This document shows, piece after piece, positions 14,073-61,372 of a DNA stretch of 64,000 nt (position 1 is its first letter; each line of letters opens with the position of its first letter). The notes beneath the pieces were generated by a model. That model made no database searches, was not told where the DNA came from, and saw nothing but the letters and a program-made list of their open reading frames with translations. The stretch spans positions 62,001 through 126,000 of the forward strand of contig JBEKTZ010000011.1 of the NCBI GenBank assembly GCA_049515535.1, given 5' to 3'. The stretch is from Candidatus Aminicenantales bacterium. Lineage in GTDB: Bacteria; Acidobacteriota; Aminicenantia; Aminicenantales; UBA4085. Made by a program: the position numbers and the translations under genes.

Positions 14073-14153
14073 TTAATTTCGGTGACAGTCAACGCATTAC
14101 CGAAATTCGATCACGTTGAATTCGGGGGTTGAGTTATCTGTCTCCGAAATTAA
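14073..14153. repeat. Hairpin repeat family H, copy B (left edge of defence island)
   Basis: ttaatttcggtgacagtcaac...ggttgagttatctgtctccgaaattaa imperfect inverted repeat. Confidence 0.85.
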
Positions 14154-14212
14154 TGGATGGAAGTCATCGGCAACCGGACTAAATAAGCCCTTCCTTCTGA
14201 ATCCTAATACGC

Positions 14213-16993
14213 CTATTCGATTTTCATTTTGTTTGCCAGTTCCAAATCCTCCAATATCTGCTTCAATTCGGCCGCGAGTCTTTGGGCAATTCCAGCATCC
14301 ACGGTTACCGAAAAATCGACGCCAATCCTCAGCTCCGTGCCACTCCGGAGTTTCGGTAGGATCCTCGTACCCAACCTATTCCAAATCTCTGGAGGAACCT
14401 CGCCGGTAATCCTAATGGTCTTTATTTTCCCAGCCGGCGCAGTTCCCAATCCTGGCTCAGGGCTCAGCGGCGGAATCGGCACGGGCGTAGGCCCTAGCCC
14501 AGGCGCAATCCCCTTCCCGACATCCAAACCGCCGCCCGGCAACGACTCCATACCAGTTCTCAATGCTTTTGCTTTAGCCTTAAGAAGAAGAAACACCCCC
14601 GGCTCAAACGCGACCTCATCCTGAGCCAACAGTTCCTCGAACCAAATTCGCTCGTATCCACCATCCGTCTTCCGGCCTGAGCCGAGCCCAAACTCCCCCT
14701 TCACCACGAATTCGCCTATCTTGCCGCGCAATACGGCGTCGGGATCAATCAGCCTTGTTAACGACCCGTTTAAGAAGCTCTGTCTCAGGCTGGCCAACGG
14801 CCATGCGCCTTCTTTTTTCAGTGCCGGCGGCCAATTCCTCTCGATATACCCCGCTCCCACCGATTCATTCAACAAAGCGTATGATTTCAGGGCCGTTATC
14901 ACCCGACCGCATAGCGTCTCGCCGCTGCTCGAATGACCCGCTCCCAGGTCTATTGTCTTAAGCCCATCCGGTTCCTGATTGTCCGCAATAACTACATAAC
15001 GATATCCGCCCCAGACTTCATCCCTAACGGCCGCCTCCGCATCAGCCACCTTCGCTTGGAGCTCGGCCCGGTCGGTCTTGTCAAAGTCGCCCCCCAGCGT
15101 CCCTTCCGCGACTTCTTTGGCCACCCGCTTCCAAGCCAACCACAATTCCACTTTATCGCGGAGATCACGGCCGGGCTTTTTCAAACACCAGATGAGCGAT
15201 CCCGGATAAAGCCTCGGCGACTTACCCCGCTGCTTTGTCCATTCCGAAATCTGTTGGCGCAGCGTTTCGCTTCCCGTCCATTCGCAGTCAGGCTCGGCAA
15301 CGACGAGTGTGAGCTTCGGTGTGTCTTGGACTTCCACCCCATCTGCCGGCAAAGATACCATAGGAATGCTTCGGCCCCGTTCAAACTCTTTCTGGATGAA
15401 AGTCCTTATAGTAGGCCTGATCTCGGAATCTTCATCGAGAGAAGCCTTCCGGTCGTTAACGACCTTTTTCATCGTCGGCTGGTGGCTGATCTTGAAGCCG
15501 TCAGAACCGACGCGCCTGACAAAGTAGGATTTATCCTCCAGTGTAAAGGCGGCATTATCAACGGACGTCGTGTCGATCTCCGGTTCTCCCAAGGCAAACC
15601 GCAACTCCGGCAGGTGGGCCACTTTGTCGATCTGTCCCCCGGAGCTTTCGAATAGTATCGTAGCTCCAACCCGACGATGGATTTCCTTGAGTGCACCTTT
15701 GGTATCGGCATCCAAAGCTTTTGCATGCGAGTGAGTGCCTGATAGATCAGAGTCAATGGCGGCAACGAGCCGTGATTCACCGAGCTGTCCCAACACGATG
15801 CTACGGAAATCCGAGACTTCCAGCGGCGCAGACCCGAGCGTGATTAACGGCTCCCTGCGCGCTTCCGTAAAACCAGTTCGATAAGCCCAGGAAATCCATT
15901 GGGCGAGCATGGCCAAGGTCCCCCGCGTCTGTTGATACTGAGTAAGGGCCTGCCATTTTCTCTGGAAGACAGATAGAGTTGCCGGATGGAACGGGTAGCA
16001 GATTTCAAAACGGCATCTGAGGTATTCTCTGGCCTTAGCCTCGGTCGCGGCGCTGTCCACGGCTGTCCATTCCGCCGGCAACTGGGCCCGGCGTTCGAAA
16101 CACCAGTCCGCATATTCTTTAGAGACGTTCTTACGGATACGATCGCTTCCGATATCCTCGAACAGGCGGCGCCGGACGACCTCACTGATTTCAGTCTCGT
16201 CATTGGCGATGAGATCCTTGGCCACCCGGCGGACGACCTTCGTGATCTTGTCTTGCCACTGGATGTCCCAATCGGTCATCTCAACCTGACTGCGGGGCAA
16301 GCTAATGACTGCCACGCCTTGCGTAGTGCCGGTAGTAGCCACGGTCAGATTCTGGATAAAGGCATAAAATTGATCAGCCATTCCGCGATGGCGATTCAGG
16401 AAGTTGAGCACCTCGTCAAAAAGTAGGAGCACCGGCCCGCCTGCTGCCTTAAACACACGGGCGAGGGCCTCGGTTCCCGGTGGTGTGGTCTTGGCCGCCG
16501 CGCCCAGTTCTTTCACTCCATTGTCTCCGGCCAATTGCCGGGCGACATCAATCCATGGCGTCTCCCGTCCCTCCCGCGGGTCCCAGGCATTGCCAACAAA
16601 AGCGGCGACTTTTGCTGAGGGCACGGCCTTGATGCCGGCCTCCAAGATCAAGTCCGCTACCCCGGAGTACTCTGCCGCTTTCTTCCCATTTGTAACCAGG
16701 TGATAAAGCGCCGTGAGCGTGTGGGTCTTTCCGCCGCCGAATTGGGTGATAAGCGTCATCACCGGCGCGGTATTCGCGGTCTCGCCAGAGAGCCGCCGAA
16801 GCACCATCCCCGCGTGCTCGCGCAACGCCCGCGTGAAGCAGGTCCGCGCGAAGAACTTCTTGGGTTCTCGGTAATCCTCCGGCGCGGTCCTGGCAATGAC
16901 TTGTTCCAAGTGGATCGCAAATTCGTCCGGATTGAACGATCGCCCTTCGCGGACTTCCTTGCGTGGTGTAGTTATTTTGTACCAAGGTTCCAT
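14213..16993 (-). CDS. DUF499 family AAA+ ATPase (BREX-related/restriction-like system)
   Basis: N-terminal PWY..TPRKEV..EFA; Walker A QFGGGKTH; Walker B LLLFDE; CYPFHP. Confidence 0.9.
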   Translation of the reverse strand: MEPWYKITTPRKEVREGRSFNPDEFAIHLEQVIARTAPEDYREPKKFFARTCFTRALREHAGMVLRRLSGETANTAPVMTLITQFGGGKTHTLTALYHLVTNGKKAAEYSGVADLILEAGIKAVPSAKVAAFVGNAWDPREGRETPWIDVARQLAGDNGVKELGAAAKTTPPGTEALARVFKAAGGPVLLLFDEVLNFLNRHRGMADQFYAFIQNLTVATTGTTQGVAVISLPRSQVEMTDWDIQWQDKITKVVRRVAKDLIANDETEISEVVRRRLFEDIGSDRIRKNVSKEYADWCFERRAQLPAEWTAVDSAATEAKAREYLRCRFEICYPFHPATLSVFQRKWQALTQYQQTRGTLAMLAQWISWAYRTGFTEARREPLITLGSAPLEVSDFRSIVLGQLGESRLVAAIDSDLSGTHSHAKALDADTKGALKEIHRRVGATILFESSGGQIDKVAHLPELRFALGEPEIDTTSVDNAAFTLEDKSYFVRRVGSDGFKISHQPTMKKVVNDRKASLDEDSEIRPTIRTFIQKEFERGRSIPMVSLPADGVEVQDTPKLTLVVAEPDCEWTGSETLRQQISEWTKQRGKSPRLYPGSLIWCLKKPGRDLRDKVELWLAWKRVAKEVAEGTLGGDFDKTDRAELQAKVADAEAAVRDEVWGGYRYVVIADNQEPDGLKTIDLGAGHSSSGETLCGRVITALKSYALLNESVGAGYIERNWPPALKKEGAWPLASLRQSFLNGSLTRLIDPDAVLRGKIGEFVVKGEFGLGSGRKTDGGYERIWFEELLAQDEVAFEPGVFLLLKAKAKALRTGMESLPGGGLDVGKGIAPGLGPTPVPIPPLSPEPGLGTAPAGKIKTIRITGEVPPEIWNRLGTRILPKLRSGTELRIGVDFSVTVDAGIAQRLAAELKQILEDLELANKMKIE

Positions 16994-17014
16994 TGTAAAT
17001 ACTCCACCTTCAGT

Positions 17015-17812
17015 TTAGGAAAGCATTTTTTCCATAGAATTTACAAGATTTCTTAGCCATTTGATGTCACTTTGAACCCCATCGATATCAATTGGGTTAA
17101 CAATTATCTTTCCGCTATTACGAACTCGGCGTATATCTCCTTCATGAGCAATCTCATTCCTTCGTTTTATAATCCGGTTCAGATGTTCTTTAACCTCCTC
17201 TGCCCTCTCATTCATATTCTTTCCGCATCTGCTCCACAGACTCTTTATCCCAACCATGCTCCAAGCTGCGGCGATATCCTCCGGGCGCTGAAGCGTTAGG
17301 TCTTTGTGAAACTTTTCCTGTAAGCCCTGCTTCACAATATGCATAGGTCTCGTCCGCACCCTCCCCCCTATTCCTTTTCGGAGTTTAGCGTTTTTCACGG
17401 CACGCTTAACGAACGATAGCGGCAATGAAACCTTCTTGAGTTCCGAGGGCCATTTTTTATCCGAGCGGCCCATTTTTTTAATAACCCGAGCCAGGAGCTC
17501 GTCGTGACAATAGCGATCGAGCGCTGACACCGAACTTACTATTGCGGCTCGTAAAAGCTCTGAGAGTTCATCTTGACGAAATTCATTTAGCGAAACTGGA
17601 GATTTCGCACGGAGAATAAGTAAAGCATGGTTTCCATCGATTCTCTGTATTTTTTCCGTGCTGGGCCAGCGCATTAAATTCTTAAATTTAACTGCCCAAT
17701 CTTGACGAGTGCCTCGTTGGCGCCTATTGTAAAGCAGGTCATATAGATTAAGAAGTCGATCCACTCTTTGCATTGTTACATCAAAAACTGCTTTAGGTTT
17801 CATATGCGTCAC
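17015..17812 (-). CDS. HEPN-domain putative RNase effector
   Basis: LLRAAIVSSVSALDRYCH N-terminal helix and RRNEIAH (Rx4H) motif; lower GC. Confidence 0.75.
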   Translation of the reverse strand: MTHMKPKAVFDVTMQRVDRLLNLYDLLYNRRQRGTRQDWAVKFKNLMRWPSTEKIQRIDGNHALLILRAKSPVSLNEFRQDELSELLRAAIVSSVSALDRYCHDELLARVIKKMGRSDKKWPSELKKVSLPLSFVKRAVKNAKLRKGIGGRVRTRPMHIVKQGLQEKFHKDLTLQRPEDIAAAWSMVGIKSLWSRCGKNMNERAEEVKEHLNRIIKRRNEIAHEGDIRRVRNSGKIIVNPIDIDGVQSDIKWLRNLVNSMEKMLS

Positions 17813-20800
17813 CTTGGTACTGCCAAAAGCATCGCATCTAACAGGCGTTTCTCCTCGCTTTTTCTTGGATAAAGCGCCGAAAGTGCGTTTGCCAGGCGCA
17901 TGAAGTCCGCTCCACGCTCCTGCTCGGCTTTGATAAGCATCCGGAGGGCATTCGCCTGCCCACCCGCTTGGAGCAGCATCGCCGCGTGCACACGGTCGAG
18001 CGTGGTCGCTTCGCGCATGGCGTCGCCTTCGACTGCTAACGGGTTCAAGCTCATCTCACGACGGCCTCGGCCACGTCCGCGAATCTTCGGTGCTTGTTCC
18101 TCCTCGAATTCGGGAAAAAGCACCTGCTGGATTGGGAGCGTCGGGTCGTGCTCGATCAAGTCGGCAACAGCATCGGCTCCGTCCTCACCAAAGAGTTGCT
18201 TGGTCCGCTCGGAGATGGCCATAAGTCTGACCACTCCCTTTATCGTCTCGATGATGCGGCCTTCCCACTTAGGGAGTTCAATGCCCAACGGTTGGGCGAA
18301 ACGGCGGACCACATCAAAAATAAGGCTGTAACCCTCTGCCTTCCCCTTCGGGGTAGCCTCCCCTTCATCCGTGTCACTTGAGTCCTCTTCTGATTCCTCA
18401 TCCGGCTCGCCGCCAGAGCCGTCCCGGCCGTTGGTAGCTTGGAGTGTCCAGAGGAAGAGCGCGGTGAGGCGCGCGTCTTCTTCCAGTACACCCGCCATGC
18501 CGTTTCGCGCTCTAGCTTCGGCTGTGCCGAGGATCTGCTCAAGGGCGGTTCGGCCGACGACTTCCCAGACCTTCACCAGATATTCGGCGAGTTTTACTTC
18601 GCGGCCGTCGGCAGTCTCGACCTTCCGATAGCGGCTGAAGATTTCCAGTGCCGGACCAATGCAGGCGAAAACCAGGTCCGCGCCGCGAATGCCCTCGCCC
18701 TGCAAACGCTCCATCCAGTCGCCGACACGCTTGGGGAGTTCGCGCAAGACTTCGCCCCAGTCGCCGACCAGCACGTCATCCGGCCGCGGGCGGCAGACGA
18801 GATGGACGCTCGTAGCTAAAGCTGCCGAATCCATAGCCCGCAGACGACTACCCGATTCGGTGGCAATAGGCCAGGATCCGGTAACGACCCAACCACCCTT
18901 TATCATCCCAGACAAAAGTGCCTCCCAGCCCTCCGTTGTCTTATGGGCAAAAACAACGGCCCCAACACCATCCGCTCGCAAAATCCGGCATCCTTCTATA
19001 AAAGCTCTTTCCATGGTCGATTCGAAGAACAGCTTATCTTTTGGGCGACCGGCTACTACCTTGGTTTCATCTTGAACGGCCTCCCGTAACTTGGGAGACA
19101 GCGGATTCGATGGATCAAATGGATCGCGCAGAAGGGGATGTCCGCGCAAGCTGCGTTTGGCCCAGGTGAGGAAGAAATCCGACAAATCGGAATATGGTAT
19201 CGCGTCATAATATGGCGGGTCGGAAAAGAATACCGATGCTGAATCGGTAGGCAACGGAGACTCGCATGCATCCGCTTGCTGAACTTGAGCATGATTAATT
19301 CGGATCGCAGACAATTCGGCTATAACTTTCAAAATCCAATTAAGTTCTTCCTCCCATCCACCGCTTGCGCCAGCAAAAGGCTGTGCCTCACACCAATCCC
19401 AGATTATTGGCAAGGCTGGTCGAGACAAGGTATTACCTCCCATATATTCCGCAGTCGGTTTCCATCTACACATGCTGGTTGCCTTGTCGGCTAGTTTGTC
19501 CAACACAAGCGTAAGTAGTTCTGCCACTGATTCACTCTTCGATTCTCTGATAAGCTGAAGCAAGCAAGTCAACATCACCTTCTGCCTCGCCGTGAACAGG
19601 TCGCCCCACTTGAGCATGCCGTATCGCTGCACGCGGAAGCCCAGCGTGCCGACCGGCGGCAGGCGTTCATCCGGCACGGGGCAAAGGCCCTTCTCGCCAT
19701 CACGCTCCCACTCATCTAGAATTCCTTTCAGCCGCTTATGCGCGTTCCAGACGGCTTCGTAATCGCACTCGGTAGGAAGACGGTAATGCCGTCCCGTCTC
19801 GCCAGGTCGTAGCGTCACGACAGCCAGCATCCGTGCGCCGCCAATTCGGTCACCTCTCTCGTCGAAGACTGCATCTGCTCCGCCACGCTGCTCGGCTAGT
19901 TGGGCCCGGACCCGGTTTGGCGGTAAAACCATATTGCAGCATAGGCATGTCGCCTTGGCCCGGGCGACCGTCCTGCCCTGAACTTCTTTCTCGTTCTTAG
20001 GCTCGAAGACTTCGAATTCAACTCGCGGCGGTTCACCCTTGGGCTGTATAACTTTATATCTGAGCGCACGCCGCCGATTGGCTTTGCTGCAGAGCCAAAA
20101 TGAGCGCATGAGCGGAATCTCCGCCCCGCAGTTGGGCGATTCGCACTTCACCGTCCGAGCCCAGAGGTAGGCAATCGGGGTGGCCCCATCAGGGTCTTTT
20201 GGATAGAATTCAGCCAGTTCCTTTTCGGCCTTCTTCTTGATCTCATCGCCGACTCGGCGCAGCTCTTCGGCAAGTTCCGATCCATGTCGCGGGATATCCT
20301 CCAGCATGACCTTTAGGATGAGGCACGCTACAGGATTGAGATCACTGGCGAAGGTCTCACAACCCAGCCGCAGGGCTTCGAGCGGAATCGATCCACCCCC
20401 GGCAAAAGGGTCCACAACGAGAGGCGTCTCTTCTGGATAAGCGGCTTTCACGAGCGCTCGCGCTGTTTGCAGGTAGTCTGCGTTTGCGGAGTTATCCCAA
20501 TTGGCGAAGTCCCCGATGAATTCAAAGATGGCCTTCCGAAGTCCTTTATCGGTCTTGACTTCAGACTCCCATCGACTTGGTCGCCCGTGTTTTCTAATGA
20601 GAATGTCCTTTGCTGCGGTCCTAAATTCCTCTGGGCAAGCGTTATCACACGGATCCGGCAAGAGAAGGGCCATGAGCATCGCTCGGCAGGCTGCTAGCGG
20701 CCGGCGAGCCCACCATAGATGAAGCGTGGATGGATGACCGTGGCGGATAGACTTCTCCCGCACCGAGTGCTTAGAGACTACTGCAATGGGGAAGTCGACT

Positions 20801-20832
20801 TCAGCCAGGCGCTTACATTCTTTCGGTATCAT
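17809..20832 (-). CDS. DUF1156 adenine-specific DNA methyltransferase
   Basis: LHLWWARRPLAACRA, DPFAGGGSIP (motif I), SDPPYYD (motif IV), Zn ribbon. Confidence 0.92.
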   Translation of the reverse strand: MIPKECKRLAEVDFPIAVVSKHSVREKSIRHGHPSTLHLWWARRPLAACRAMLMALLLPDPCDNACPEEFRTAAKDILIRKHGRPSRWESEVKTDKGLRKAIFEFIGDFANWDNSANADYLQTARALVKAAYPEETPLVVDPFAGGGSIPLEALRLGCETFASDLNPVACLILKVMLEDIPRHGSELAEELRRVGDEIKKKAEKELAEFYPKDPDGATPIAYLWARTVKCESPNCGAEIPLMRSFWLCSKANRRRALRYKVIQPKGEPPRVEFEVFEPKNEKEVQGRTVARAKATCLCCNMVLPPNRVRAQLAEQRGGADAVFDERGDRIGGARMLAVVTLRPGETGRHYRLPTECDYEAVWNAHKRLKGILDEWERDGEKGLCPVPDERLPPVGTLGFRVQRYGMLKWGDLFTARQKVMLTCLLQLIRESKSESVAELLTLVLDKLADKATSMCRWKPTAEYMGGNTLSRPALPIIWDWCEAQPFAGASGGWEEELNWILKVIAELSAIRINHAQVQQADACESPLPTDSASVFFSDPPYYDAIPYSDLSDFFLTWAKRSLRGHPLLRDPFDPSNPLSPKLREAVQDETKVVAGRPKDKLFFESTMERAFIEGCRILRADGVGAVVFAHKTTEGWEALLSGMIKGGWVVTGSWPIATESGSRLRAMDSAALATSVHLVCRPRPDDVLVGDWGEVLRELPKRVGDWMERLQGEGIRGADLVFACIGPALEIFSRYRKVETADGREVKLAEYLVKVWEVVGRTALEQILGTAEARARNGMAGVLEEDARLTALFLWTLQATNGRDGSGGEPDEESEEDSSDTDEGEATPKGKAEGYSLIFDVVRRFAQPLGIELPKWEGRIIETIKGVVRLMAISERTKQLFGEDGADAVADLIEHDPTLPIQQVLFPEFEEEQAPKIRGRGRGRREMSLNPLAVEGDAMREATTLDRVHAAMLLQAGGQANALRMLIKAEQERGADFMRLANALSALYPRKSEEKRLLDAMLLAVPR

Positions 20833-23792
20833 TCGGCGCCTCCCGCTGCAACCGCAGATGGAAAATCCATCCCATAGCGATGCTGCCGCACACGGAAGGC
20901 ATCACGTCCCCCCTCCATGATGTCAATTACTGACTGCACGATATCTTCATTGTCAATTGATCCGTGTTTCTCCACTTTCGCCTTGCGATCGCTAATCGCA
21001 TTCAAGACGATCACCTGCTCGGCATCACCGGACACAACGATGTTCGGGTTGTGCGTGCAAACAATGATCTGGCGTTTCTCCTTGAGCGCCCCGAGAATAT
21101 CAGCGAGAACCTGACCAATGAGTCGATTGTCCAAGTTATCTTCCGGCTGATCGATAACGAGCGGCGTCGCCTCCGCTAAGGCGATGAGAGGAAGCATCGC
21201 ACTCGACCTTTGGCCTGGAGATAGTTCCCCAACCGGACGGTCATTCAGAAGTATGCTTTCTTCGTCGTCCCATTCGGTCTCCTGAAGTGTTATCAGTTTC
21301 GTCAAGCGAGCGCTATTCTCCTGGAGAGACTCGACCTGGGCGGCTTCGTCCATTTCCCACGGCTTCCACAAGTCAATCGCCTTTTGGGCTTCAGTAGTTG
21401 TGATTTGTGCTGATGGATCATCGGGGAGCGGGCGACCAGCAAAGACGCTCGCATCACCGGCAAGCAGCGCCTGGACCAAGGTTACGGGATTAAAGTGGGT
21501 GGCTAAGATCTCCGGAATCCGGCGGTTCTTGTACTGCGTCGCAAAGGCAGATGCAATCTTGAATTGAATAATTTCCTCGCTGAATCGCCGCGTATCTCGC
21601 CCCGCTTGGAAGCGGAGTGATATCTTCATGCGTCCGGCAAAGTATTGATTAAGCCTCGTCTCGATCGTCTCATTATGTCGTGCCCGAATTCCCGCAATCC
21701 GATCGTGGCTTTGTATCAGTTGGTCTGCGGTTTGCTTCCGCGCTGTTAGCGTATCTTGAAGACGCTTCCAGGCTTTCATATACTCATCGCGGACAGCAGA
21801 TACCTCGCGTAATCTACGCTCCGCATTCGTACGAAGGTCAGCAATTTTTTGCATGGACGAGTCGTCTGCAAATGAAGCTCTGATCTTTGACTGGAGTGCA
21901 TCAATTTCAGTTTTGACCACGGCGATATGCTGACCCAATAGTTTGGACAATTCCTTCAGCACTTGGGTGGCAGATGACAGGTACCTCTGCACATTTGCCT
22001 CCGAATCAACAATCTTGAGTTTTTGTGTCACATCAGTCATCCACCAATCGCGGAGCGACTGAGGTGCCTCCTGGAGGAGTTCCGTCAGTCCCTCTCGTAG
22101 CGAGGTAAGGTCAAACTCTTCCACCTTGGCTGTAAAAGAATCGACATTCTGCTTGATAATCTGCAAGACTTGCCCTTTCATCTGGGCGAGGTCGAGTTCG
22201 CCGAAGTGTTTCTTAACTTCCTCGGTATTTAGCTTTTCGAAGGCGGCTTTGTATTCAGAATAGCGACGGATAATACCGTTCTGGCGAGCGTAAATAGTAT
22301 TGAGCTCGTTTGTGATCTTTTCAACGTCTTTTCGGTTGGCTTGAAATTGTTGGCGAAGATTGTCTCGTTCCTGCCTAGCTGGCGGCAATTCTGCGACAAG
22401 ACGATCCAAGAGATCCCTCTGACGTGCGGTATCCCGGCCAAGTGTCTCGATTTCGCTCCATCCAAAGAGTCGCACGGGATAATCGCCGCTGGATTCAACG
22501 TCGGCGACGGATAGTTGATCGCCGTCGGTTGTAAACACCTTGGTTGCATAATCCTCTTGCGGATCGAAAGTAGCTTCAAGAATGCGCCTATCGCCAGCCT
22601 GGGTCTGATAAACAACTCGAATGAGGCAGCCAGTCAGATTTGCTTTCTGCATTTCACGGATGCGTTCGGAAAGCTTGTTGGTCGTGTCGAGTTCCGAAAT
22701 TGTGCGGTTGTAGCCAAACACGAAGCGTAGCGCTTCGACAATTGTCGATTTGCCAGAGCCGCGGGGGCCGATGAGGCAGTTGAGGTTTTCAGCAAAGGCG
22801 ATGCGCTCATTCTTGAACAGCGACTTGTCGTCGCCCACAATTTCAAGACCAAGAAGAAGGGGGCTGGGGGGCGTTGGCAGATCAGATGTGAAGCGGATTC
22901 TCGTTTCGGGGAATTTCAGCGCGTCGTGTATCCCCTTGAGGCCCAGGGTCGTCATTTTAGCCCAGGTGACCAAGTTTGGCCGGGCGAAGTCTTCGATGCA
23001 ATGTGCGTCGAGCCGCATTGTCACGGGAATTGCGACCTTGTGCCCCTTTTCGATCGAGGTCCACCGATAGTGCCTTTTATCCGTAGCCTTAGCTATCTCA
23101 AGAGCATCCAAACCTACTTTGAGTAAGTAGTCCTTCAGTTCATTGGAGAGTTGCTGTTCCTGTTCGGCCTGTGTAGCCGGATCAATTGTTAGAAGCTTAA
23201 TAAGGCCAGTAGCGGTTTGCCGAAAGTGGTGCCGGACGCCTTGTTGTGAATTGACGTGTGCAGCAACGCATACGCCACCCTCGTCGTGAATACGCTTGAT
23301 AAAATCCTCTAAGCGCAGTCCCGTAATAATTTCATTGCCTGTCCTGTGTGCATCGTCCGGGATAGCCTTGAGCCCTGCGAACAGGCGACTAAAACTCTCC
23401 ACGGTTGATCCCTCGGGGAGTATGACGAGGATATGTAGCCTCGAGCAACTGATCGCCGCCTCGGGCTGGAAGTTCACCTCCATTCCAGGAAGGACCAAAA
23501 AGTCTTTCTCACCTCGGCTGGCATTGGACACCTTACTGGCATAGGAGCATTTCATGTGGTCGGTGATTACTACCAAATCGAAATGCTTTTTCAACGCGTT
23601 GATGAACTCGGCTTCGCCGCTGGGCGCAAGAAGTTTTTTCCGATCATTGAGTGTCTTATCACCCGTTTGGTTCCAGTCGTGACTGTCGGGAGAGTGCACG
23701 TGAAGCGCCACTCGGCGGAAACGGGCAGTCCGTTTTCGAAGCTCATCCAAGATCGCAAACAAATCCTGATAAGGGGGTACTTGGGGAGTCAT
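20829..23792 (-). CDS. PHP phosphoesterase + ABC/SMC-type ATPase fusion (Ppl/TrlF-like)
   Basis: PHP: LHVHSPDS, ITDH, GMEV, AAHV, LDAH; ATPase: GPRGSGKS, LSPGQ, LVIDQPED, CTHNPN; coiled coil between. Confidence 0.88.
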   Translation of the reverse strand: MTPQVPPYQDLFAILDELRKRTARFRRVALHVHSPDSHDWNQTGDKTLNDRKKLLAPSGEAEFINALKKHFDLVVITDHMKCSYASKVSNASRGEKDFLVLPGMEVNFQPEAAISCSRLHILVILPEGSTVESFSRLFAGLKAIPDDAHRTGNEIITGLRLEDFIKRIHDEGGVCVAAHVNSQQGVRHHFRQTATGLIKLLTIDPATQAEQEQQLSNELKDYLLKVGLDALEIAKATDKRHYRWTSIEKGHKVAIPVTMRLDAHCIEDFARPNLVTWAKMTTLGLKGIHDALKFPETRIRFTSDLPTPPSPLLLGLEIVGDDKSLFKNERIAFAENLNCLIGPRGSGKSTIVEALRFVFGYNRTISELDTTNKLSERIREMQKANLTGCLIRVVYQTQAGDRRILEATFDPQEDYATKVFTTDGDQLSVADVESSGDYPVRLFGWSEIETLGRDTARQRDLLDRLVAELPPARQERDNLRQQFQANRKDVEKITNELNTIYARQNGIIRRYSEYKAAFEKLNTEEVKKHFGELDLAQMKGQVLQIIKQNVDSFTAKVEEFDLTSLREGLTELLQEAPQSLRDWWMTDVTQKLKIVDSEANVQRYLSSATQVLKELSKLLGQHIAVVKTEIDALQSKIRASFADDSSMQKIADLRTNAERRLREVSAVRDEYMKAWKRLQDTLTARKQTADQLIQSHDRIAGIRARHNETIETRLNQYFAGRMKISLRFQAGRDTRRFSEEIIQFKIASAFATQYKNRRIPEILATHFNPVTLVQALLAGDASVFAGRPLPDDPSAQITTTEAQKAIDLWKPWEMDEAAQVESLQENSARLTKLITLQETEWDDEESILLNDRPVGELSPGQRSSAMLPLIALAEATPLVIDQPEDNLDNRLIGQVLADILGALKEKRQIIVCTHNPNIVVSGDAEQVIVLNAISDRKAKVEKHGSIDNEDIVQSVIDIMEGGRDAFRVRQHRYGMDFPSAVAAGGAE

Positions 23793-24178
23793 TTTCCATT
23801 CCCTCCGACGTGTTCATTCAACACCTTTTCCCTGGAAGAAGTAAAATTGGGAATCATCAATTCCAAAAACCCGGCTTCAATCGGCGGTTTTACAAAGCCG
23901 TCGCGGAACCTTTCCGTCCATGCGTTGTTGGTGAACTGATAATTGGCGTTGTTGAGCCGGAGGTGCACAAAGGCCGGGAGGGTAACAGCCAGAGTCTTCC
24001 GTTCTGCGATGAACTCTGGTTGGCCGGTTTGCAGTGAGCGGAGTATCGTACAGAAGGTGGTCCTGCCACGGCCGTTTTCCGCATAGACGAGGGTCAGTTT
24101 ACGGAACGTCACGTCTCCATTGGCGGCGTAGCTCCGAAAGCGACCGATGCTCTTGATTTGGACGATTTTCTCAAGCAT
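23789..24178 (-). pseudogene. Truncated AAA_13/RloC-like ATPase N-terminus joined to a Fic-like wHTH remnant
   Basis: IKSIGRF...LVYAENGRGRTT (Walker A with K>R); only 129 aa; tail FRDGFVKPPIEAGFLELMIP. Confidence 0.6.
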
Positions 24179-24300
24179 GGCCGTCTCCGCTTCGTCCTGG
24201 GCTTTGACCGCTTGCTTTGTCCTTCAATACGACCAGCCCCGCCTCCGTTGCCCTGTACCGCTGCATCCGGCTTCGCGGTTTGTCGAGGATGGTCAATCGA
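24171..24300 (-). pseudogene. C-terminal remnant of a Fic-like winged helix
   Basis: TILDKPRSRMQRYRATEAG resembles the TIPDKPxSxxQxYRLTxxG motif. Confidence 0.5.
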
Positions 24301-24444
24301 GATTTCTCACTACAGTCGATGAAATAATTGTTATTGGTTCTGATAGACTGATGGTTTTGTTCGATCAAGTTGCGACCATTAAGGCAATTGTCTTCATTCC
24401 CTGAAATAGGATCACATTGCACGTTCGTGATCCCATTAATGGTA

Positions 24445-25494
24445 TCATGATCCTATTCTCTCCCATTCGGCATTACGCCCTTTTCCTAAGCAGCGGATTT
24501 CCTTATTCCTTTTTAAATCCGCCAGGGCGCGTTTTATCGTCGGATAGCTTATCCCCGGGCACGCACGCTGAAGGTCCGCAATCCGGAATCTCCCGGGCAA
24601 ACGGCGAATCGAGTTCTGCAGCATCTCTTTTTTTGCTCCTCGCGCTGAAGTAATTGTTCCTACCCGTTCTTCGAATTCTTTATAAGCGCCTACGAGAGTT
24701 CCAAGAAAATAGTCCCACCAAGGCCGCAGATCATGCCTTCCCTCGTGCCAACCTCCCGAGCTTTTTTGCAAGGCCTCGTAATAGGTTTCCTTGCTATCCT
24801 CGATAATGCGTTCGAGGCTGATATATCTGGCGACTTCATAACCGGCTTGGTAGAGCAACAACAAAGTCAGCAGTCTCCCCACTCTGCCGTTTCCGTCCCA
24901 AAACGGATGGATGCATTCAAAGTCAAGAACGAAGGAGGCAATCGTCAATAAGGGCTCGGCACTTCTTTCGTCCAGCGCCCGATGATAAAGCTCACATAGT
25001 TTTTTTGTGAATTCCGGTGCGCCGACTGCGGAGACAGGACGGAACCGGACAACCTGCCGCCCATCGCTTACGATTTCAAGAATAGCATTATCCTTTTCTT
25101 TCCATCTTCCTCCTTTCTCCGGGGTTTTCGCGAACATTCGGCGATGAAAATCAAGAATCAGGCCTGGGGAAAGAGTCATCCTGTTCGCCCGCGTGTGAAT
25201 TTCAGCTAGGACATCGCGGTAGCCGGCGACTTCCGCTTCAGAACGATTTCTGGGCCTTACTTTTTTATTGACGAGAGGCTCTAACCTTTCCGCCGCTACG
25301 ATAACGCCTTCGATCCGGTTTGAAGATTCGACACTCTGGATTATGGCGACGCGACGGAGAGTCTCGAGAATTTCGGGCGATTGTTGTTGGTAAAGATCCT
25401 GTCTTCCCCGGAATTCACCCAGAGCCCGGACGGTCATAAGCAGACTTTGTGATATTGGCTGTTCAAGAAAGTAACCGAATTCAAAGGATCTCAT
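24445..25494 (-). CDS. Fic family protein
   Basis: SSNRIEG and canonical HPFWDGNGRVGR motif; C-terminal wHTH. Confidence 0.92.
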   Translation of the reverse strand: MRSFEFGYFLEQPISQSLLMTVRALGEFRGRQDLYQQQSPEILETLRRVAIIQSVESSNRIEGVIVAAERLEPLVNKKVRPRNRSEAEVAGYRDVLAEIHTRANRMTLSPGLILDFHRRMFAKTPEKGGRWKEKDNAILEIVSDGRQVVRFRPVSAVGAPEFTKKLCELYHRALDERSAEPLLTIASFVLDFECIHPFWDGNGRVGRLLTLLLLYQAGYEVARYISLERIIEDSKETYYEALQKSSGGWHEGRHDLRPWWDYFLGTLVGAYKEFEERVGTITSARGAKKEMLQNSIRRLPGRFRIADLQRACPGISYPTIKRALADLKRNKEIRCLGKGRNAEWERIGS

Positions 25495-28400
25495 GTGTCG
25501 GTTTCCTCGTATTTAAGCTTTTCCTCTCTCACCTTCATCGGCCTTGTCATTGCGTCCACTGCCAAGTAATAGTGCGCGACCTTGGTCACTTCATGCCAAT
25601 TGAAACGGGCAGGATCCTTAATTGGTTCCTGGAGAGTGGGCTTGGTGGAGCAGTTGGTCACTACATAGAGATAATAACAGTCACGCCGGTCTTCAGCGAC
25701 ACGACGCTCGTTGGGCGTCAGTAAGATCATGCCGGCGGCCTCGGACAAGCCCTTGACCTCAATGAGGCGCAATTCGCCCGAGTTTACATCCAGGCTGGTC
25801 ACATCGTAGCCGAGGTTCTGTTCATGAACGTCGAAGACCTGGCGGCCGGAGGAACTCTCATATTCCATGGCGACCCTCATGGCCGTCGCCTCGGTTTCAG
25901 GGTTCGGCCGCATGCGCCTCAGCTCCGGGGCTTCGCGCTCGGGATGTGGAAGGACCAGAATTCTCGCCATCCGTTCGACATTCTGAAGAGTCAAGGATTT
26001 CTGCTGCTGGAGTTCGCGCCTTCTTTTCTCCCTGCGGGATAAGAGTTCGGCATGCCTGTTTTCTGCCTGGGCAAGCCGGCCTTCCGCGCCGGTAATGCCC
26101 TTATTGACTTCGTCGCAGGCCCGGCCTATTTCGTCATCCGCCCGCTGGATCAATTCCGTCAGGGATATTTCGATATGTTGAGCGACACGCTCAAGATCGG
26201 CAAGGCGTTCTTTCCGAACTTCCTCGAGGAAAGGCTGGAGAACATGAGCCTGGAGCCAGTCCGACGGCTCGGGAAGAGACGTGATCTCGGAAGGAGCAGC
26301 CGGAGCATCTGCCGGAGTAAAGTTTCCTATGACATTTGGCTCTTGGAGAATGGGCTCTTTATCGAACGCGATCTCCAGGGCAAACAACCGCTCATGGATC
26401 ACGTCGCCGAGCCCATCGACGATACAGGATCGGTAGAAATCCATCCGGACCGGAGATTCGTGCTGGAGAGAATAGAAGCAAGCGCCTTTGCTCAGAGCTT
26501 CGCGGGCCTTGGCATAGGAGTGACGGCGGATGGCCTCGAATAGCGGGTGTCCCGGCGTCACCCATTCTAGGTTATTGCTCTCGGCGGTTTCCCGGTCGGT
26601 TGAGCATTTGGGATATTTGTTGGCCAAGGCCGGGAGCTTCCAATCCTTTTCCTGTTCATAGCGTCGGAGAATATTGGGGATCTTGCCGGGCTCAAAGGCG
26701 TGAGGAAAATTCTCAATGGATTTGATTCGTATCGGAACGGTATCGGCCGCCTCCCGAATGAAGCGGGCTATTGTCTCAGGCACAACCCGCCGCTCCTGGG
26801 CCCGGGCGCGGCGCTCAATGAGCATTTCGAGGTTGAGGTTCTTAGAGGCCAGGCCTTCGAGGGCGTTCTGGCAAATCGCCCGGAACCGGCCTTCGTCGAC
26901 ATTCTGGAGAATGCGGTCTTCGAGGTCGGCGGCGCCGAGCTTGCCCGCATAATAGTCTCGGAGAATCCGCTCGACATGGGCCGAGGGGAGGATTTCGCCG
27001 ATGACGTTGAAGACGGCATCATCATCCAACGCGTCGCGGATTTGCTTGAGTTTATCCAAGAGTCGCCGAAGGACACTGCCTTCGATCGTATTCGTCGCTA
27101 CGAAGTTGAAAATCAAGCAGTCTTTCTTCTGACCATATCGGTGGATACGGCCCATGCGCTGTTCCAGCCGATTCGGATTCCAGGGGATGTCGTAATTGAA
27201 AAGGATATGACAGACCTGGAGGTTGATGCCTTCGCCCGCGGCTTCCGTAGCGACGAGGATCTGGCTTCCTCCGTCCCAGAACTGTTGCTCCGCGTGGAGC
27301 CGGGTGCCGGGTTCATCGCGGGAACCCGCCCTCATTCCGCCGTGAATAATGCCGATTTTGAAGCCCCAGGTCTTGAGCTTGGCGACAAGATAGTCCAGGG
27401 TATCCTTGAACTCCGTGAATATGAGGAGCCTCTGGTCGGGATTATCAAAGAAGCCCTGTTCCTGGAGAATCGATTTGAGCTTGAACAGCTTGGCTTCGAT
27501 ATTCCGGTCTTCCACGTTCTTGGCCTGTTCGGCCAGGCTGAGGAGTTCTTCGATTTCGTCGCGGACCTGGTCGGCGTTTTCGGTCAGGGTGACTGCCTCG
27601 AGCAATTCCTCAAAGCGTTGCCGTTCTCCCTCTTCCATTTCTTCGAGCTCTTCCGGGTCGGGAAGATCGGGCGGGGCAACCTGGATGAGTGCGATGGCCT
27701 TCTTGAGGCCAAGTTCCAGTCGACGGGCGCGGTTCTCAAGGCTGCACCGGACGGCATGTATGCTCGAAGCCAGGCGCCTTTGATAGAGAGCCATGAGGAA
27801 GCCGACCGCCCGGGCTCTGGGCGTATCTCCCTGGGCCGCGGCTTTGGTGCTTTGCCTCTTGACGAACCTCGTAATCTCGTTATAGAGGCGGTCTTCATCG
27901 CCGTCTATCTTGAAATCGGCCGTTATCGGGATACGCTTCGTGAAGATCTTTTTTGCCACCCAAGTCCCGTCCGGCTGCCGTTCGGGGAAAAAGACCATGG
28001 CTTCCTTGGTACGGCGAAGGTAAAATGGAGCGTGGTGTCGTTCCATGGCCTCATGAATCGAGCAGACATCGGCATAGACGTCCGGATCAAGGAGCTGAAG
28101 GAAAAGGGTGAAGTTCTCGGCATTGCCCTTGTGGGGAGTCGCCGTCATGAGCAGGAGATGGTCCGTCGTATCCCTGAGGAGTTCGCCGAGGGAATAGCGA
28201 GCTGTCTTTCGCGACGGCGGGGTCCAGGACATTCGATGGGCTTCATCAACGATGACTAGGTCCCAATGGACTTGCCTGAGTCCCGGCAGGATGTCTGTTC
28301 TTTTGGCCAGATCCAGGGATGTGATAACTTTCTTCTGCTCCAACCATTGGTTGACGCCATACTGTTCCTTGATATCTCCGCCCTTGAGTACGATGAACTT

Positions 28401-28943
28401 CTGGTTGAACTTTTCCTTGAGCTCGCGCTGCCATTGAAAGGTTAGATTGGCGGGGCAAACGACTAGAATTTGATCGGCCAGCCCGCGCATCTGGAGTTCT
28501 CGGAGGAGAAGACCGGCCATGATGGTCTTCCCGGCGCCGGCATCATCTGCCAGGAGGAACCGGACGCGAGGCAACTTGAGGAGATAGTCATAAACGGCTT
28601 CAAGCTGATGCGGAAGAGGATCGATCCGGGAAATGGATAGGCCGAAGTAGGGGTCGAATTCATAAGCGATGCCTAGAGAATATGCTTGAAGGCCGAGGCG
28701 GAGTAGTTTGCCATCGCCGTCGTAGGTAAAGACCGAATCTAGGATCATCAGGGAGGCGAGGTCGGTATCGGCGAGGTGCACTTTCCGGTAGCGACTGGAA
28801 TTCAGGCCGACGAGGCCCAGAACCCAGATGTTCTCGTTTTCTCGGCGCACGGTCTCGACACGCATGGGCTCGTCGAAAAGCGGGCCGGAGAGAATCTGGC
28901 CTTCGCGGAGGGTAATCGAGTTAACGGGCATCTTCTGACTCAT
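25491..28943 (-). CDS. SNF2-family helicase with C-terminal DUF3883 nuclease-like domain
   Basis: LADDAGAGKT, DEAH, MTATPH, EGINLQ, QRMGRIHRYGQ; LGYDVTS...RLIEVKG. Confidence 0.92.
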   Translation of the reverse strand: MSQKMPVNSITLREGQILSGPLFDEPMRVETVRRENENIWVLGLVGLNSSRYRKVHLADTDLASLMILDSVFTYDGDGKLLRLGLQAYSLGIAYEFDPYFGLSISRIDPLPHQLEAVYDYLLKLPRVRFLLADDAGAGKTIMAGLLLRELQMRGLADQILVVCPANLTFQWQRELKEKFNQKFIVLKGGDIKEQYGVNQWLEQKKVITSLDLAKRTDILPGLRQVHWDLVIVDEAHRMSWTPPSRKTARYSLGELLRDTTDHLLLMTATPHKGNAENFTLFLQLLDPDVYADVCSIHEAMERHHAPFYLRRTKEAMVFFPERQPDGTWVAKKIFTKRIPITADFKIDGDEDRLYNEITRFVKRQSTKAAAQGDTPRARAVGFLMALYQRRLASSIHAVRCSLENRARRLELGLKKAIALIQVAPPDLPDPEELEEMEEGERQRFEELLEAVTLTENADQVRDEIEELLSLAEQAKNVEDRNIEAKLFKLKSILQEQGFFDNPDQRLLIFTEFKDTLDYLVAKLKTWGFKIGIIHGGMRAGSRDEPGTRLHAEQQFWDGGSQILVATEAAGEGINLQVCHILFNYDIPWNPNRLEQRMGRIHRYGQKKDCLIFNFVATNTIEGSVLRRLLDKLKQIRDALDDDAVFNVIGEILPSAHVERILRDYYAGKLGAADLEDRILQNVDEGRFRAICQNALEGLASKNLNLEMLIERRARAQERRVVPETIARFIREAADTVPIRIKSIENFPHAFEPGKIPNILRRYEQEKDWKLPALANKYPKCSTDRETAESNNLEWVTPGHPLFEAIRRHSYAKAREALSKGACFYSLQHESPVRMDFYRSCIVDGLGDVIHERLFALEIAFDKEPILQEPNVIGNFTPADAPAAPSEITSLPEPSDWLQAHVLQPFLEEVRKERLADLERVAQHIEISLTELIQRADDEIGRACDEVNKGITGAEGRLAQAENRHAELLSRREKRRRELQQQKSLTLQNVERMARILVLPHPEREAPELRRMRPNPETEATAMRVAMEYESSSGRQVFDVHEQNLGYDVTSLDVNSGELRLIEVKGLSEAAGMILLTPNERRVAEDRRDCYYLYVVTNCSTKPTLQEPIKDPARFNWHEVTKVAHYYLAVDAMTRPMKVREEKLKYEETDT

Positions 28944-29030
28944 CGGACTAAATCCCTAAGAGAATCTGGGATCATGATGCTGATGAAAAACTTCATGCTC
29001 CCGTCGTATCCTTATAGGATAGGCCCCTAA

Positions 29031-29150
29031 AAATAGGGATAGGAGTTTCCTTTTCTTCGGCGCGCCGATTTTCCTTCCCGCTAAGCTCGGAATCGGCGCT
29101 CCCATCACGAAACGACTATATCGCCGGCTGCGGCGCGAGTCAAGAACGAG
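29031..29150 (-). ncRNA. Promoter + candidate structured leader RNA L upstream of the defence operon
   Basis: TTGACT(29138-29143)-17-TATAGT(29115-29120); near-identical to 30205-30325. Confidence 0.65.
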
Positions 29151-29168
29151 GGACTCGGCACTACGCAT

Positions 29169-29242
29169 ATTTCGGTGACAGTCAACGCAATACCGAAATT
29201 GCCCTTATTGGAATAAGAATTTAGGTTGAGTTATCTGTCACC
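29169..29242. repeat. Hairpin repeat family H, copy C
   Basis: atttcggtgacagtcaacgca...ggttgagttatctgtcacc. Confidence 0.85.
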
Positions 29243-29271
29243 TTACTATCATCATAGATAATGAAAATTTA

Positions 29272-29733
29272 TTAACATAATTTACTAAATTGAAAATTAA
29301 ACATATAACAATGGATATGATCTTTTTTACATGATTTAATAACATCCCCTAAATGAGGCAAATTTGATGTGGGATATCCTATAGCTATAAATAATGAATG
29401 TATATTATGAGTCTTTATTATTGATTCTAGTTCCGCATACGCACCTAATACTGAGACCGAAAGATTAGTAATGTCCTCGATTGCAACAGTGCCGGCTTTT
29501 TTGGGGTCATCATCGATAAAACCTATAAGGTCTGCATGGCTAAAATCCCAGCTTTTGTATTTGCATTTTTCAATTATCCTTATAGCTAACAACTTCCCGG
29601 CTTTCCCGGCTCCATAAATCAATATTCTCCCTTGTGGAGCCACCATATAGGACTTTTTCATAATATATTCCCAAATAAATAAAACGGCAGCCATGATACA
29701 GACGATTATAATGAAGACGCTAATTAAATCCAT
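29272..29733 (-). CDS. Membrane-anchored CoA-binding-like Rossmann domain protein (CapD/PglF N-terminal type), AT-rich
   Basis: TM helix, ILIYGAGKAG, GFIDDDPKK, VLG..., LFIAI; AGGAGG SD. Confidence 0.7.
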   Translation of the reverse strand: MDLISVFIIIVCIMAAVLFIWEYIMKKSYMVAPQGRILIYGAGKAGKLLAIRIIEKCKYKSWDFSHADLIGFIDDDPKKAGTVAIEDITNLSVSVLGAYAELESIIKTHNIHSLFIAIGYPTSNLPHLGDVIKSCKKDHIHCYMFNFQFSKLC

Positions 29734-29745
29734 GTTTTCCTCCTG

Positions 29746-30165
29746 TTAAAAAGAAAAGAGCTGTGAAAGTAAAAATCTACACATAAATATAGCTATCAAC
29801 CCAAAAATATTAATTAGAAAACGCGAGGTTGCAATTGATTGATAAGATTGTTGGCCGACAGGGGCATGGAGAATTGTTTTTACGAGACGAACACAGACAA
29901 CCCATAATATGAAAAGCAAAAAAACTAAAGTAAAAAGAGGAGCGCTAGCGATACGCTTGGAAGGCAAATTGAGATAATCGCTAGCGAAGGCAAAAATTCC
30001 TAAAAAGGATATAGAAATGATAATCAAATTATGCCCAAAAATATTTCGGTCTCTTCTTATACATTGAAAGATAGGCGAGATTAGTTTAGGCCATGTAATG
30101 GTTAAGAAGGTGGCGCCTAAAGTCGGTAATAGAGATTGGAGCACGATTGGAAATGTTTTAAACAT
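29746..30165 (-). CDS. AT-rich 4-TM hypothetical membrane protein
   Basis: ATG at 30165 with AAGGAG SD; four hydrophobic segments. Confidence 0.65.
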   Translation of the reverse strand: MFKTFPIVLQSLLPTLGATFLTITWPKLISPIFQCIRRDRNIFGHNLIIISISFLGIFAFASDYLNLPSKRIASAPLFTLVFLLFILWVVCVRLVKTILHAPVGQQSYQSIATSRFLINIFGLIAIFMCRFLLSQLFSF

Positions 30166-30204
30166 TTTATGGGACTCCTTCACACACGTGAGATCGTAGC
30201 ATTG

Positions 30205-30325
30205 AAATAGGGATAGGAGTTTCCTTTTCTTCGGCGCGCCGATTTTCCCTCCCGCTAAGCTCGGAATCAACGCTCCCATCACGAAACGACTATATCGCCG
30301 GCTGCGGCGCGATGTCAAGAACGAG
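30205..30325 (-). ncRNA. Promoter + candidate structured leader RNA L upstream of the AT-rich gene pair
   Basis: TTGACA(30313-30318)-18-TATAGT(30289-30294); duplicate of 29031-29150. Confidence 0.65.
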
Positions 30326-30443
30326 AGAATAGGCGCAAATAAGAATTATATATGGGCTTCGGGGCGGCGGAGAAGGCGCTCTTCGCCAAGGGCGGAACCA
30401 TCGTTCACAGCGAGGAGCTCTTCGCCCCTTCTAAGCAGTATAA

Positions 30444-30522
30444 GATGGGGTTAAATTTTCATTCTGCCACTTTCTTCGATGGGAAGAGCATAAAAGTGGC
30501 AGAATGAAGATTTGACTCCGTC
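30444..30522. repeat. Long REP-like inverted repeat
   Basis: gatggggttaaattttcattctgccacttt / aaagtggcagaatgaagatttgactccgtc 30-bp arms. Confidence 0.8.
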
Positions 30523-30530: not shown

Positions 30531-30881
30531 TCAGCTTCTCTTCCAGGACAAAATGAGGCCGACAACCCCCTGCCAAAAAAGGGAGGAAAATATCGTCAGC
30601 AGATGCCACTGGTCGCCAAGCCGGTGCCCGTTGATCACGGTCGCCGAGCCGTAATAGATGGCCAGAATGGTCAGGATCATAAGGGCTGCGGTGATGTTAT
30701 TGGTTTTCAGGAAAAGGTGCATTTCGCGCTCATCGGGTTTCCGTTTCCTTGACGCGAAATGGGTCACAACCGGCAGAAGGGCAAAGAAAGCGAATAGGGC
30801 TAAGCCTACTTGTCCAAAAAGCAGGGTGGCCGTTATGACGGCCATGCCGACGAATCCCGTGAATCCGTATCTCCAGATCAT
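30531..30881 (-). CDS. Small membrane protein (DER-motif, DUF2178-like)
   Basis: 4 TM segments with KPDERE motif; coupled to an XRE regulator. Confidence 0.65.
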   Translation of the reverse strand: MIWRYGFTGFVGMAVITATLLFGQVGLALFAFFALLPVVTHFASRKRKPDEREMHLFLKTNNITAALMILTILAIYYGSATVINGHRLGDQWHLLTIFSSLFWQGVVGLILSWKRS

Positions 30882-61365: not shown

Positions 61366-61372
61366 TTTCGGC

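Follow-up and report, generated by a model that had tools for sequence, protein, structure and literature searches.

The window analyzed here is a stretch of 64,000 nucleotides (nt) from a Candidatus Aminicenantales bacterium (G000:C11:62001-126000), taken from a 32-contig assembly of 3.45 Mb, and the elements in question are two repeats that border unrelated groups of genes within it: L, a short module with a predicted promoter, and H, a hairpin. To our knowledge, Aminicenantia is a phylum-level lineage without cultured model organisms. The genome (G000) is the sole member of its genus among the genomes compared, and the nearest of these shares only one 1-kb gene with it (98%). Along the minus strand, L2 comes first, followed by two AT-rich genes, H copy C (H-C), 18 bp, L1, a 15-kb operon, and H copy B (H-B). 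A first, sequence-only reading had described this layout as two tandem units, and it is present in the sequence, as is the 18-bp interval between L1 and H-C. The two cargoes are indeed unrelated, one being an Hma-type defence operon and the other a small AT-rich gene pair. In the following list, model positions refer to the profile of an insertion sequence described further below, and z values give folding relative to shuffled sequences.

8151..8210, no strand: H copy A, of which half (the right arm and centre) is present, with ApbE on one side and a MazE-like antitoxin pair on the other; z −1.5.
12954..13105, plus strand: L3, a diverged solo copy of L, model positions 210-362, E 1.8e-39.
14073..14153, no strand: H-B, an 81-nt palindrome, 63 nt past the hmaC stop; z −6.7.
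14213..28943, minus strand: cargo 1, the Hma-type defence operon, assigned by profile matches.
29031..29167, minus strand: L1, a solo oriIS-side end by homology, model positions 230-363, reading into the Hma operon.
29169..29242, no strand: H-C, 29 nt past the stop of the 153-amino-acid (aa) gene, its right arm lacking the last 5 nt; z −5.4.
29272..30171, minus strand: cargo 2, the AT-rich gene pair, encoding 141 aa (29746-30171) and 153 aa (29272-29733).
30205..30338, minus strand: L2, a solo oriIS-side end by homology, model positions 232-363, reading into the AT-rich gene pair.
61368..61450, no strand: H copy D, which has the best pairing of all copies and lies between divergent genes; z −8.4.

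L1 and L2 are nearly identical, as had been claimed: positions 29031-29138 and 30205-30312 agree at 97%, and blastn aligns 121 nt of the two at 96.7% identity, a likeness that may stem from recent copying or from recombination between them. Compared with relatives, homology to the insertion-sequence family extends in L1 through the 18-bp interval to 29167, where it ends at H-C, and in L2 to 30338. On the minus strand, L1 has a −35 hexamer TTGACT (29143-29138), a spacer of 17 nt, and a −10 hexamer TATAGT (29120-29115), and L2 has TTGACA (30318-30313), a spacer of 18 nt, and TATAGT (30294-30289); the hexamers agree with the sigma-70 consensus at 10 and 11 of 12 positions, respectively. In general, the module runs from TTCTTGAC-N17-TATAnT through the conserved core GATTCCGAGCTTAGCGGGAGGGAAA, a short GC hairpin, and an A-run to the terminus GSAAAYYCYTAT, beyond which NCCT is half conserved. 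The promoter of this portable module, predicted to be of the sigma-70 type and close to the consensus, points out of the element. L3, which the first reading had not noticed, is directed toward the convergent OsmC gene, at its 3′ end; the open reading frame (ORF) called over it (12947-13405) is probably spurious. Two candidate coding features of L were rejected: an upstream ORF within the module, the frame of which differs among copies and lacks a start codon in many, and a divergent "MAAKEA" gene beside it, the similarity being due to DNA from the 3′ spacer within the insertion sequence.

A pattern search with the L core detected nine copies in G000, all ahead of unrelated genes (among them those for NAD synthase [nadE], a tricorn-type protease, PCMT [pcm], Exo_endo_phos-Omp85, an NHL propeller, and an M16 peptidase), and a scan of genome contigs with the core gave three loci only. 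With up to 3 mismatches allowed, the 24 other family genomes searched included 8 with the core, and the 16 genomes from other families included none. Reversed-pattern controls, run in 41 genomes for this search and for the H arm search described below, had no match for either. Longer flanks, aligned with 22 added metagenome stretches, revealed that many L copies share about 165 nt more upstream and then the 3′ end of a gene whose product terminates in ...KCGG.MKV.AFITD...IIDHLKLTFVAEKPPP. An intact version of this gene is found on a metagenome contig (L054:4758-6029, minus strand) and encodes a transposase of 423 aa with the domains Zn_Tnp_IS91 (PF14319, 7.9e-20) and Y2_Tnp (PF04986, 5.9e-26); full transposase copies are also present in two related genomes (G013 and G019). 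In a full copy, L lies 165 to 290 nt beyond the transposase stop codon, which puts the terminus about 290 nt from the stop. On the 5′ side, a palindrome, GCGTCAACG...GTTGACG, is located about 120 nt before the start codon and is conserved in 8 of 10 copies. The full element of about 1.7 kb comprises the 5′ palindrome region, the gene for the 423-aa Y2 HUH transposase, a spacer of about 165 nt, and L. Directly upstream of the intact transposase gene is an ORF of 395 aa without a Pfam match (L054:6233-7420, minus strand).

In G000, the transposase is represented by 27 tblastn fragments, none of them full length, the longest of which spans aa 163-422. We examined 11 transposase 3′ ends in this genome: 7 are followed by an L module with a variant core that the first pattern had missed, 2 are cut within the spacer, and 2 lack L. 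Upstream of a copy that is 87% identical to L2 (L066), the 3′ end of the transposase gene persists in decayed form. An nhmmer model of the last 364 nt of the element (364 positions) gave 48 matches in G000, 32 of which reach the terminus. Eight of these 32 continue into the transposase gene, 5 begin at model positions 39-118, and 19 begin at 210-265, the class to which L1 (230), L2 (232), and L3 belong. The left boundaries do not fall on a single fixed base. The commonest decayed class keeps only the last 100 to 150 nt, that is, L itself. According to our own crude, heuristic ORF-based gene calls (3,115 genes across G000), the next gene of at least 100 aa is codirectional in 17 of 19 short copies, at a distance of ≤250 nt in 10 of these, and in 7 of 12 long copies. 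Contig C12 of the same genome (G000:C12:16000-80000) resembles an insertion-sequence junkyard, with at least seven L-region matches, several transposase fragments, and two H loci.

The terminus was defined as the point at which 41 aligned copies stop being alike, which is AAAAAGSAAAYYCYTAT plus the half-conserved NCCT (AAAYYCYTAT+NCCT); L1 and L2 both end in GGAAACTCCTATCCCT. Over the 41 copies, the first of the four columns after TAT holds C 14, G 10, A 9, and T 8 times, and the next three hold C 23, C 21, and T 21 times. Aligned by eye with ...ACTTCCTATACCC of ISCR1 and ...ACTTCCTATACC of ISCR27, the terminus agrees at about 12 of 14 positions, with two 1-nt gaps. The ISCR1 right end is printed as GTGGTTTATACTTCCTATACCC in one report (PMC13023784), and the ISCR27 oriIS is printed as GCGGTTGAACTTCCTATACC, 236 bp beyond the stop codon, in another (PMC8894482). 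Because of the transposase linkage and the terminus like the ISCR1 and ISCR27 ends, we identify L, by homology, as the terminal ∼135 nt on the oriIS side of a rolling-circle insertion sequence that is IS91/ISCR-like and native to this Aminicenantia family. Like IS91, IS801, and IS1294, the element has the transposase Pfam domain pair and, apparently, two unlike ends without inverted terminal repeats, with a palindrome near the 5′ end and putative short palindromes near the 3′ end. It differs from them in that the neighbours of its terminus are NCCT-like, not CTTG, GTTC, or GTCC, that the distance from stop to terminus is about 290 nt, and that its mobility is putative. In a divergent copy in G019 (L093, G019:C9), the oriIS end (…CCGGGCGGAAAAGGAATTTCTTATAC) downstream of the transposase occurs twice in tandem, at a distance of about 50 nt, and a perfect 12-bp inverted repeat, CTTGACTTCGCC/GGCGAAGTCAAG, surrounds a promoter-like site.

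An ordinary host promoter with the 5′ leader of a regulon (a cis-regulatory RNA or an operator), not mobile, would account for the conservation of the module across genera ahead of nadE, pcm, the tricorn protease, and the M16 peptidase, for the conserved −35/−10 spacer, which holds a small palindrome, and for the TTCTTGAC form of the host's OsmC promoter. We nevertheless regard this as highly improbable, since many L copies are physically continuous with a transposase 3′ end, truncation has left the copies as a nested series, the downstream genes have no common function, and some copies (L054 and L3) point into convergent genes. Folding of L was no better than that of shuffled sequences (z −1.75 and +1.06), RNAalifold gave no consensus structure (4 trivial pairs and zero compensatory changes), and no Rfam family reached the gathering score in the window, where matches at E ≤10 were only chance hits of microRNA models at the hairpin at 30444. 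L is not a structured leader, because it has no Rfam match, no consensus fold, and no fold beyond shuffles. The two L subfamilies place the terminal hairpin in different registers.

H-B and H-C, described by the first reading as hairpins behind both cargoes, have an arm in common, ATTTCGGTGACAGTCAACGCA, and both fold as single-stranded DNA hairpins, with 0 of 200 shuffles folding as well. The claim of a further copy, H copy A, stands in part: its right arm and centre are present, but it is only half a copy with a degenerate left arm. On the side of H-B away from hmaC lies the OsmC promoter (TTGACC-17-TATAAT). Across G000, arm matches mark about 23 loci, all of them intergenic, at least 11 of them within 30 nt of a stop codon and four of them in divergent promoter regions. 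The terminal arms of about 23 nt are conserved, TTTCGGTGACAGWCAAC(TCAACC), and the interiors vary, giving element lengths of 73, 175, or 223 nt. At ≤1 mismatch, matches to the arm number 21 in G000 and between 2 and 22 in seven further genomes; the arm is multicopy in G003, G008, G014, G010, and G004, as well as in G035 of another family, and most of the remaining genomes searched lack it. The TA that flanks most copies is indistinguishable from an extension of the palindrome.

No autonomous partner of H was found: arm pairs 3 to 5 kb apart enclose ordinary operons without a transposase, as in G014, where they enclose ruvAB-queA and the electron transfer flavoprotein (ETF) operon. Y1_Tnp has two matches in G000 (C9:107983-108345 and C13:96330-96653), with no H arm (≤4 mismatches) near either gene. 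H resembles REPIN, repetitive extragenic palindromic (REP), and miniature inverted-repeat transposable element (MITE) sequences in being an imperfect palindrome of 70 to 80 nt with many intergenic copies, often just past stop codons, in being patchy among relatives, and in having conserved arms, variable interiors, and no coding capacity. It differs from REP/RAYT systems in that no RAYT (Y1) gene is flanked by H, and from MITEs in that no autonomous element with H arms was found. Judged by sequence, H is an independent, probably nonautonomous MITE/REPIN-like palindrome with no demonstrable tie to L. In G003, a different hairpin repeat, GGGAGACACAATAC…GTATTGTGTCTCCC (L015:1330-1430, G003:C51), borders an L copy on its left, and a sequence similar to it forms the interior of a 223-nt H-armed element (G000:C6:19806-20028), which suggests nested or chimeric small repeats.

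The first reading had interpreted L and H as borders of an undescribed site-specific cassette system, integron- or REP/RAYT-like, that accepts foreign genes. In support of this, an L-cargo-H arrangement occurs at 5 of the 32 terminus-reaching L copies (L1, L2, C3:285254, C3:288804, and C12:20588) in three regions, the scoring of L1 and L2 having been done by manual reading. At C3:285-289 kb, two convergent L-driven units share one H, and the further unit is at C12:16-21 kb. In addition, the two cargoes of the window look foreign and are unrelated, and a contig from a public sequencing run (X4, see below) has L2 and the AT-rich pair in another context. Like integron cassettes, the units of the window consist of foreign genes in tandem on one strand with an imperfect palindrome after each; they differ in that no integrase is nearby and each unit has its own predicted promoter. 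Moreover, H, in contrast to integron sites, is a genome-wide repeat, its ∼23 loci lying mostly without L, including in divergent promoter regions, and flanking housekeeping operons.

Other counts also speak against such a system. L and H had been expected to occur together; although 5 of 32 exceeds the share of transcription-unit ends that carry H (∼1% by our own estimate, from ∼17 gene ends among the 3,115 genes), 27 of the 32 L copies belong to units without an H at the end, and about 18 of the ∼23 H loci have no adjoining L-driven unit. By our own count, an L match is found no farther than 3 kb from 5 of 23 H loci, compared with about 2 expected. None of the 8 L copies in five related genomes shares a contig with an H arm, a weak test given the short contigs, and in relatives H flanks the ruvAB-queA and ETF operons. 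A search of 27 family genomes for an H end followed within 60 nt by TTCTTGAC returned, besides L1, only ordinary sequence and thus no further H-L junction; one such match is the host's own OsmC promoter just past H-B. The absence of an integrase from the window holds for the contig as a whole, where neither Phage_integrase (PF00589) nor Y1_Tnp nor Y2_Tnp had a match. The suggestion that a recombinase or Y1 transposase gene might lie beside H found no counterpart, as none of the 11 PF00589 matches in the genome is on C11 and its two Y1_Tnp genes are without H arms. With L belonging to an IS91-like element, we consider the cassette system very unlikely. Of the portable expression slot that had been proposed, the portable promoter remains, given the sigma-70 hexamers and the many unrelated genes behind it; the undescribed cassette system does not, given co-occurrence at 5 of 32 copies and the identity of L as an IS91-type end.

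Instead, L is probably a decayed IS91/ISCR-like end and H a separate small mobile repeat, with the units being mobile-DNA debris in a phage defence island. The genome contains many decayed insertion-sequence copies, mostly solo L ends, and a solo L ahead of a gene would act as a donated promoter, like the POUT promoters in the oriIS region of ISCR1. L1 and L2 would be two such remnants fronting two horizontally acquired modules, the Hma operon and the AT-rich pair; if their promoters fire, they would drive these foreign genes, and short L copies may persist because they drive genes. H would land in intergenic DNA, mostly just past stop codons. The tidy L-cargo-H units would arise because L favours gene fronts and H gene ends, so that both pile up in the same flexible regions. 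With moderate confidence, we take the L-H association to reflect two kinds of insertion that share tolerant intergenic spots. Both repeats are new, and each belongs to a known kind of mobile DNA. One account of IS91 has transposition begin at oriIS and run through the element to terIS, which is missed in 1 to 10% of events, so that DNA beyond terIS is carried off in one-ended transposition (PMC13181058). With this direction of replication, the genes downstream of L are flank and therefore not cargo of L. An event primed at L1 could, by analogy, move what lies upstream of it, namely, H-C, the AT-rich pair, and L2. According to PMC8894482, ISCR1, unlike ISCR27, is wrongly oriented for mobilizing its downstream genes.

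The element of L belongs to a family known for gene capture and promoter donation. According to PMC6218425, downstream expression rises 13- to 15-fold through two outward promoters in the 232-bp oriIS region of ISCR1, and the resistance phenotype depends on them. Like L, these POUT promoters (PCR1-1 and PCR1-2) are placed a few hundred base pairs downstream of a Y2 transposase gene at a ...CCTAT(A)CC-type terminus, and in both cases outward sigma-70 promoters, predicted for L, are followed by variable, unrelated, and often foreign genes (PMC6218425 and PMC13023784). The host of L, in contrast to that of ISCR1, is an uncultured member of the Aminicenantia and not a gammaproteobacterium; the genes behind L are defence and housekeeping genes and not resistance genes; most L copies are solo ends without a transposase and have no link to class 1 integrons; and L has one strong predicted promoter (10 to 11 of 12 positions), whereas ISCR1 has two weak ones.

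An apparent new cassette system is in this way explained by two ordinary kinds of mobile DNA, and the remaining interest lies in the IS91/ISCR-type family in Aminicenantia, whose promoter-bearing oriIS ends are present in G000 as at least 19 solo copies, nearly always facing genes, including housekeeping genes and the Hma operon. Matus-Garcia and colleagues reportedly described, under "promoter propagation in prokaryotes," putative mobile promoters, that is, homologous sequences upstream of nonhomologous genes within one genome; L differs from these in that the source of its promoter can be named, an insertion-sequence end. If the promoter is active, L would provide a clean example from nature, beyond the clinical context of ISCR1, of insertion-sequence ends spreading promoters and would indicate how horizontally acquired defence genes may gain a host-compatible promoter. 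For annotation, the 130-nt L modules and the H hairpins should be masked as repeats and not treated as regulatory RNAs.

Several observations weigh against this interpretation. The window itself contains no transposase remnant, the IS91 link resting on homology to copies elsewhere, and the tetranucleotide after the L terminus differs from the CTTG, GTTC, and GTCC of characterized IS91 members. Besides the lack of folding beyond shuffles and of a consensus structure reported above, the two short L hairpins (in the promoter spacer and before the A-run) are on average only about 1 kcal/mol better than shuffles and fit the "imperfect subterminal palindromes" of IS91 ends only weakly. Promoter activity is predicted from the consensus match and from the orientation bias, the latter obtained with crude gene calls. 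The presence of H at the ends of L-driven units is an enrichment (5 of 32 versus ∼1%), and the explanation by shared tolerant spots is our interpretation of it. Furthermore, L1 directly abuts H-C, and in a metagenome copy (L075) a 21-nt fragment of the H arm is fused to the left edge of L, where the G003 ortholog has a different hairpin repeat. Finally, the X4 contig carries L2 and the AT-rich pair (29271-30319) at about 95% identity with different DNA on both sides, which would also fit an L-plus-cargo module moving as one piece.

These last points bear on a further possibility, in which the short L is a live, nonautonomous rolling-circle mini-element (oriIS, an internal ter-like GTTCTTGA, and the outward promoter) copied in trans by the transposase, and segments bounded by L and L, or by H as a surrogate terIS and L, move by one-ended transposition, which would be how the AT-rich pair arrived. 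The left ends do pile up, with 19 of 32 at model positions 210-265, and TTTCTTGA/GTTCTTGA is found at the −35 of L and again about 20 nt ahead of the transposase start. The 5′ palindrome GCGTCAACGC...GGTTGACG has GTCAACGC and GGTTGA in common with the H arms, and IS91-type replication would proceed toward the side of L1 that H-C adjoins. The tandemly duplicated oriIS end of the G019 copy and the one-ended transposition of 1 to 10% reported for IS91 (PMC13181058) point the same way. We consider such a mini-element unlikely all the same: the G000 assembly yielded no intact transposase, L copies begin on the left at varying bases, the likeness of H to the palindrome covers 8 nt and, by our own estimate, has a chance expectation of roughly a few percent, the search of 27 genomes turned up no further H-L junction, and selection for a retained promoter explains the same pileup of left ends. 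If it did exist, an uncultured phylum would have an ISCR-like capture-and-express system of its own, which would account for the L-cargo-H-L-cargo-H array.

Public sequencing runs were compared as assembled contigs only, which cannot show absence; no RNA run was among those listed as containing the region. In a source-like run from a peat metagenome (X1), 94% of the sampled words of 28700-30700 are present, and the contigs break at L and H, as they do at repeats. Among the X1 contigs, we found no joint that deletes the 1,174-bp L-to-L unit and none between L copies; three candidate joints (14151 to 29070, 12970 to 29031, and 13041 to 29067) were rejected, being best read as other H and L loci mapping across. 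A joint in X3 (14152 to 24287) has only 26 letters on one side, and one in X4 (30319 to 31318) has 41 on one side. The two are weak hints that island modules differ between populations, as is usual for defence islands, and the module made up of an HTH_3 regulator and a 116-aa gene may be absent from a related population.

The genes of the Hma operon and, beyond L2, a further hairpin and gene pair are as follows.

14213-16993, minus strand: hmaC (HmaC 1.4e-93).
17015-17812, minus strand: HEPN (RiboL-PSP), nested in the Hma operon.
17809-20832, minus strand: hmaB methylase (HmaB 5e-116).
20829-23792, minus strand: Ppl-like ABC ATPase, nested in the Hma operon.
23789-24178, minus strand: PDC-S06-like fragment, nested in the Hma operon.
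24445-25494, minus strand: SoFic, nested in the Hma operon.
25491-28943, minus strand: hmaA (HmaA 1e-166).
30444..30522, no strand: unrelated hairpin of 79 nt.
30531..31141, minus strand: HTH_3 regulator (30878-31141) and 116-aa gene of unknown family, by profile matches.

Within the Hma operon, 23789-24422 holds a 129-aa N-terminal fragment of a PDC-S06/AAA_13-type ATPase and an ORF of 83 aa; like SoFic and the Ppl-like ATPase, these have the appearance of secondary insertions between hmaA and hmaB. Around cargo 2, the GC fraction is 0.37 to 0.45 in 500-nt bins over 29000-30499. The 141-aa protein has no family match, the 153-aa protein has a weak CoA_binding_3/PglD_N match, and the pair was not found in 150 other genomes of the order. 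The hairpin at 30444-30522, which the first reading had placed beside the next gene pair, is real and lies just past the stop of the 116-aa gene, but it is single copy in the genome and unrelated to H.

Outside the island, the window contains toxin-antitoxin-type genes, namely, a MazE/PrlF-like antitoxin with a 92-aa partner (8214-8752) and a PemK/MazF-like toxin (11039-11527). A second repeat family, GC rich and about 80 nt long (…GGCGGAAnnGACCCCCGGGnAAAnCCCGGGGCCCCGGCCGCCG…), occurs in both orientations at 10084-10240, 11809-11895, 44295-44383, and 47007-47090; its copy at ∼11825-11885 is missing from an otherwise 98 to 100% identical stretch of G004:C42, which provides an empty-site comparison. 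Over 11762-12909, a radical-SAM/SPASM gene (11931-12896) has 98% DNA identity to G004:C42:7981-9006, from a different genus, with unmatched flanks, suggesting recent horizontal transfer of a single gene.

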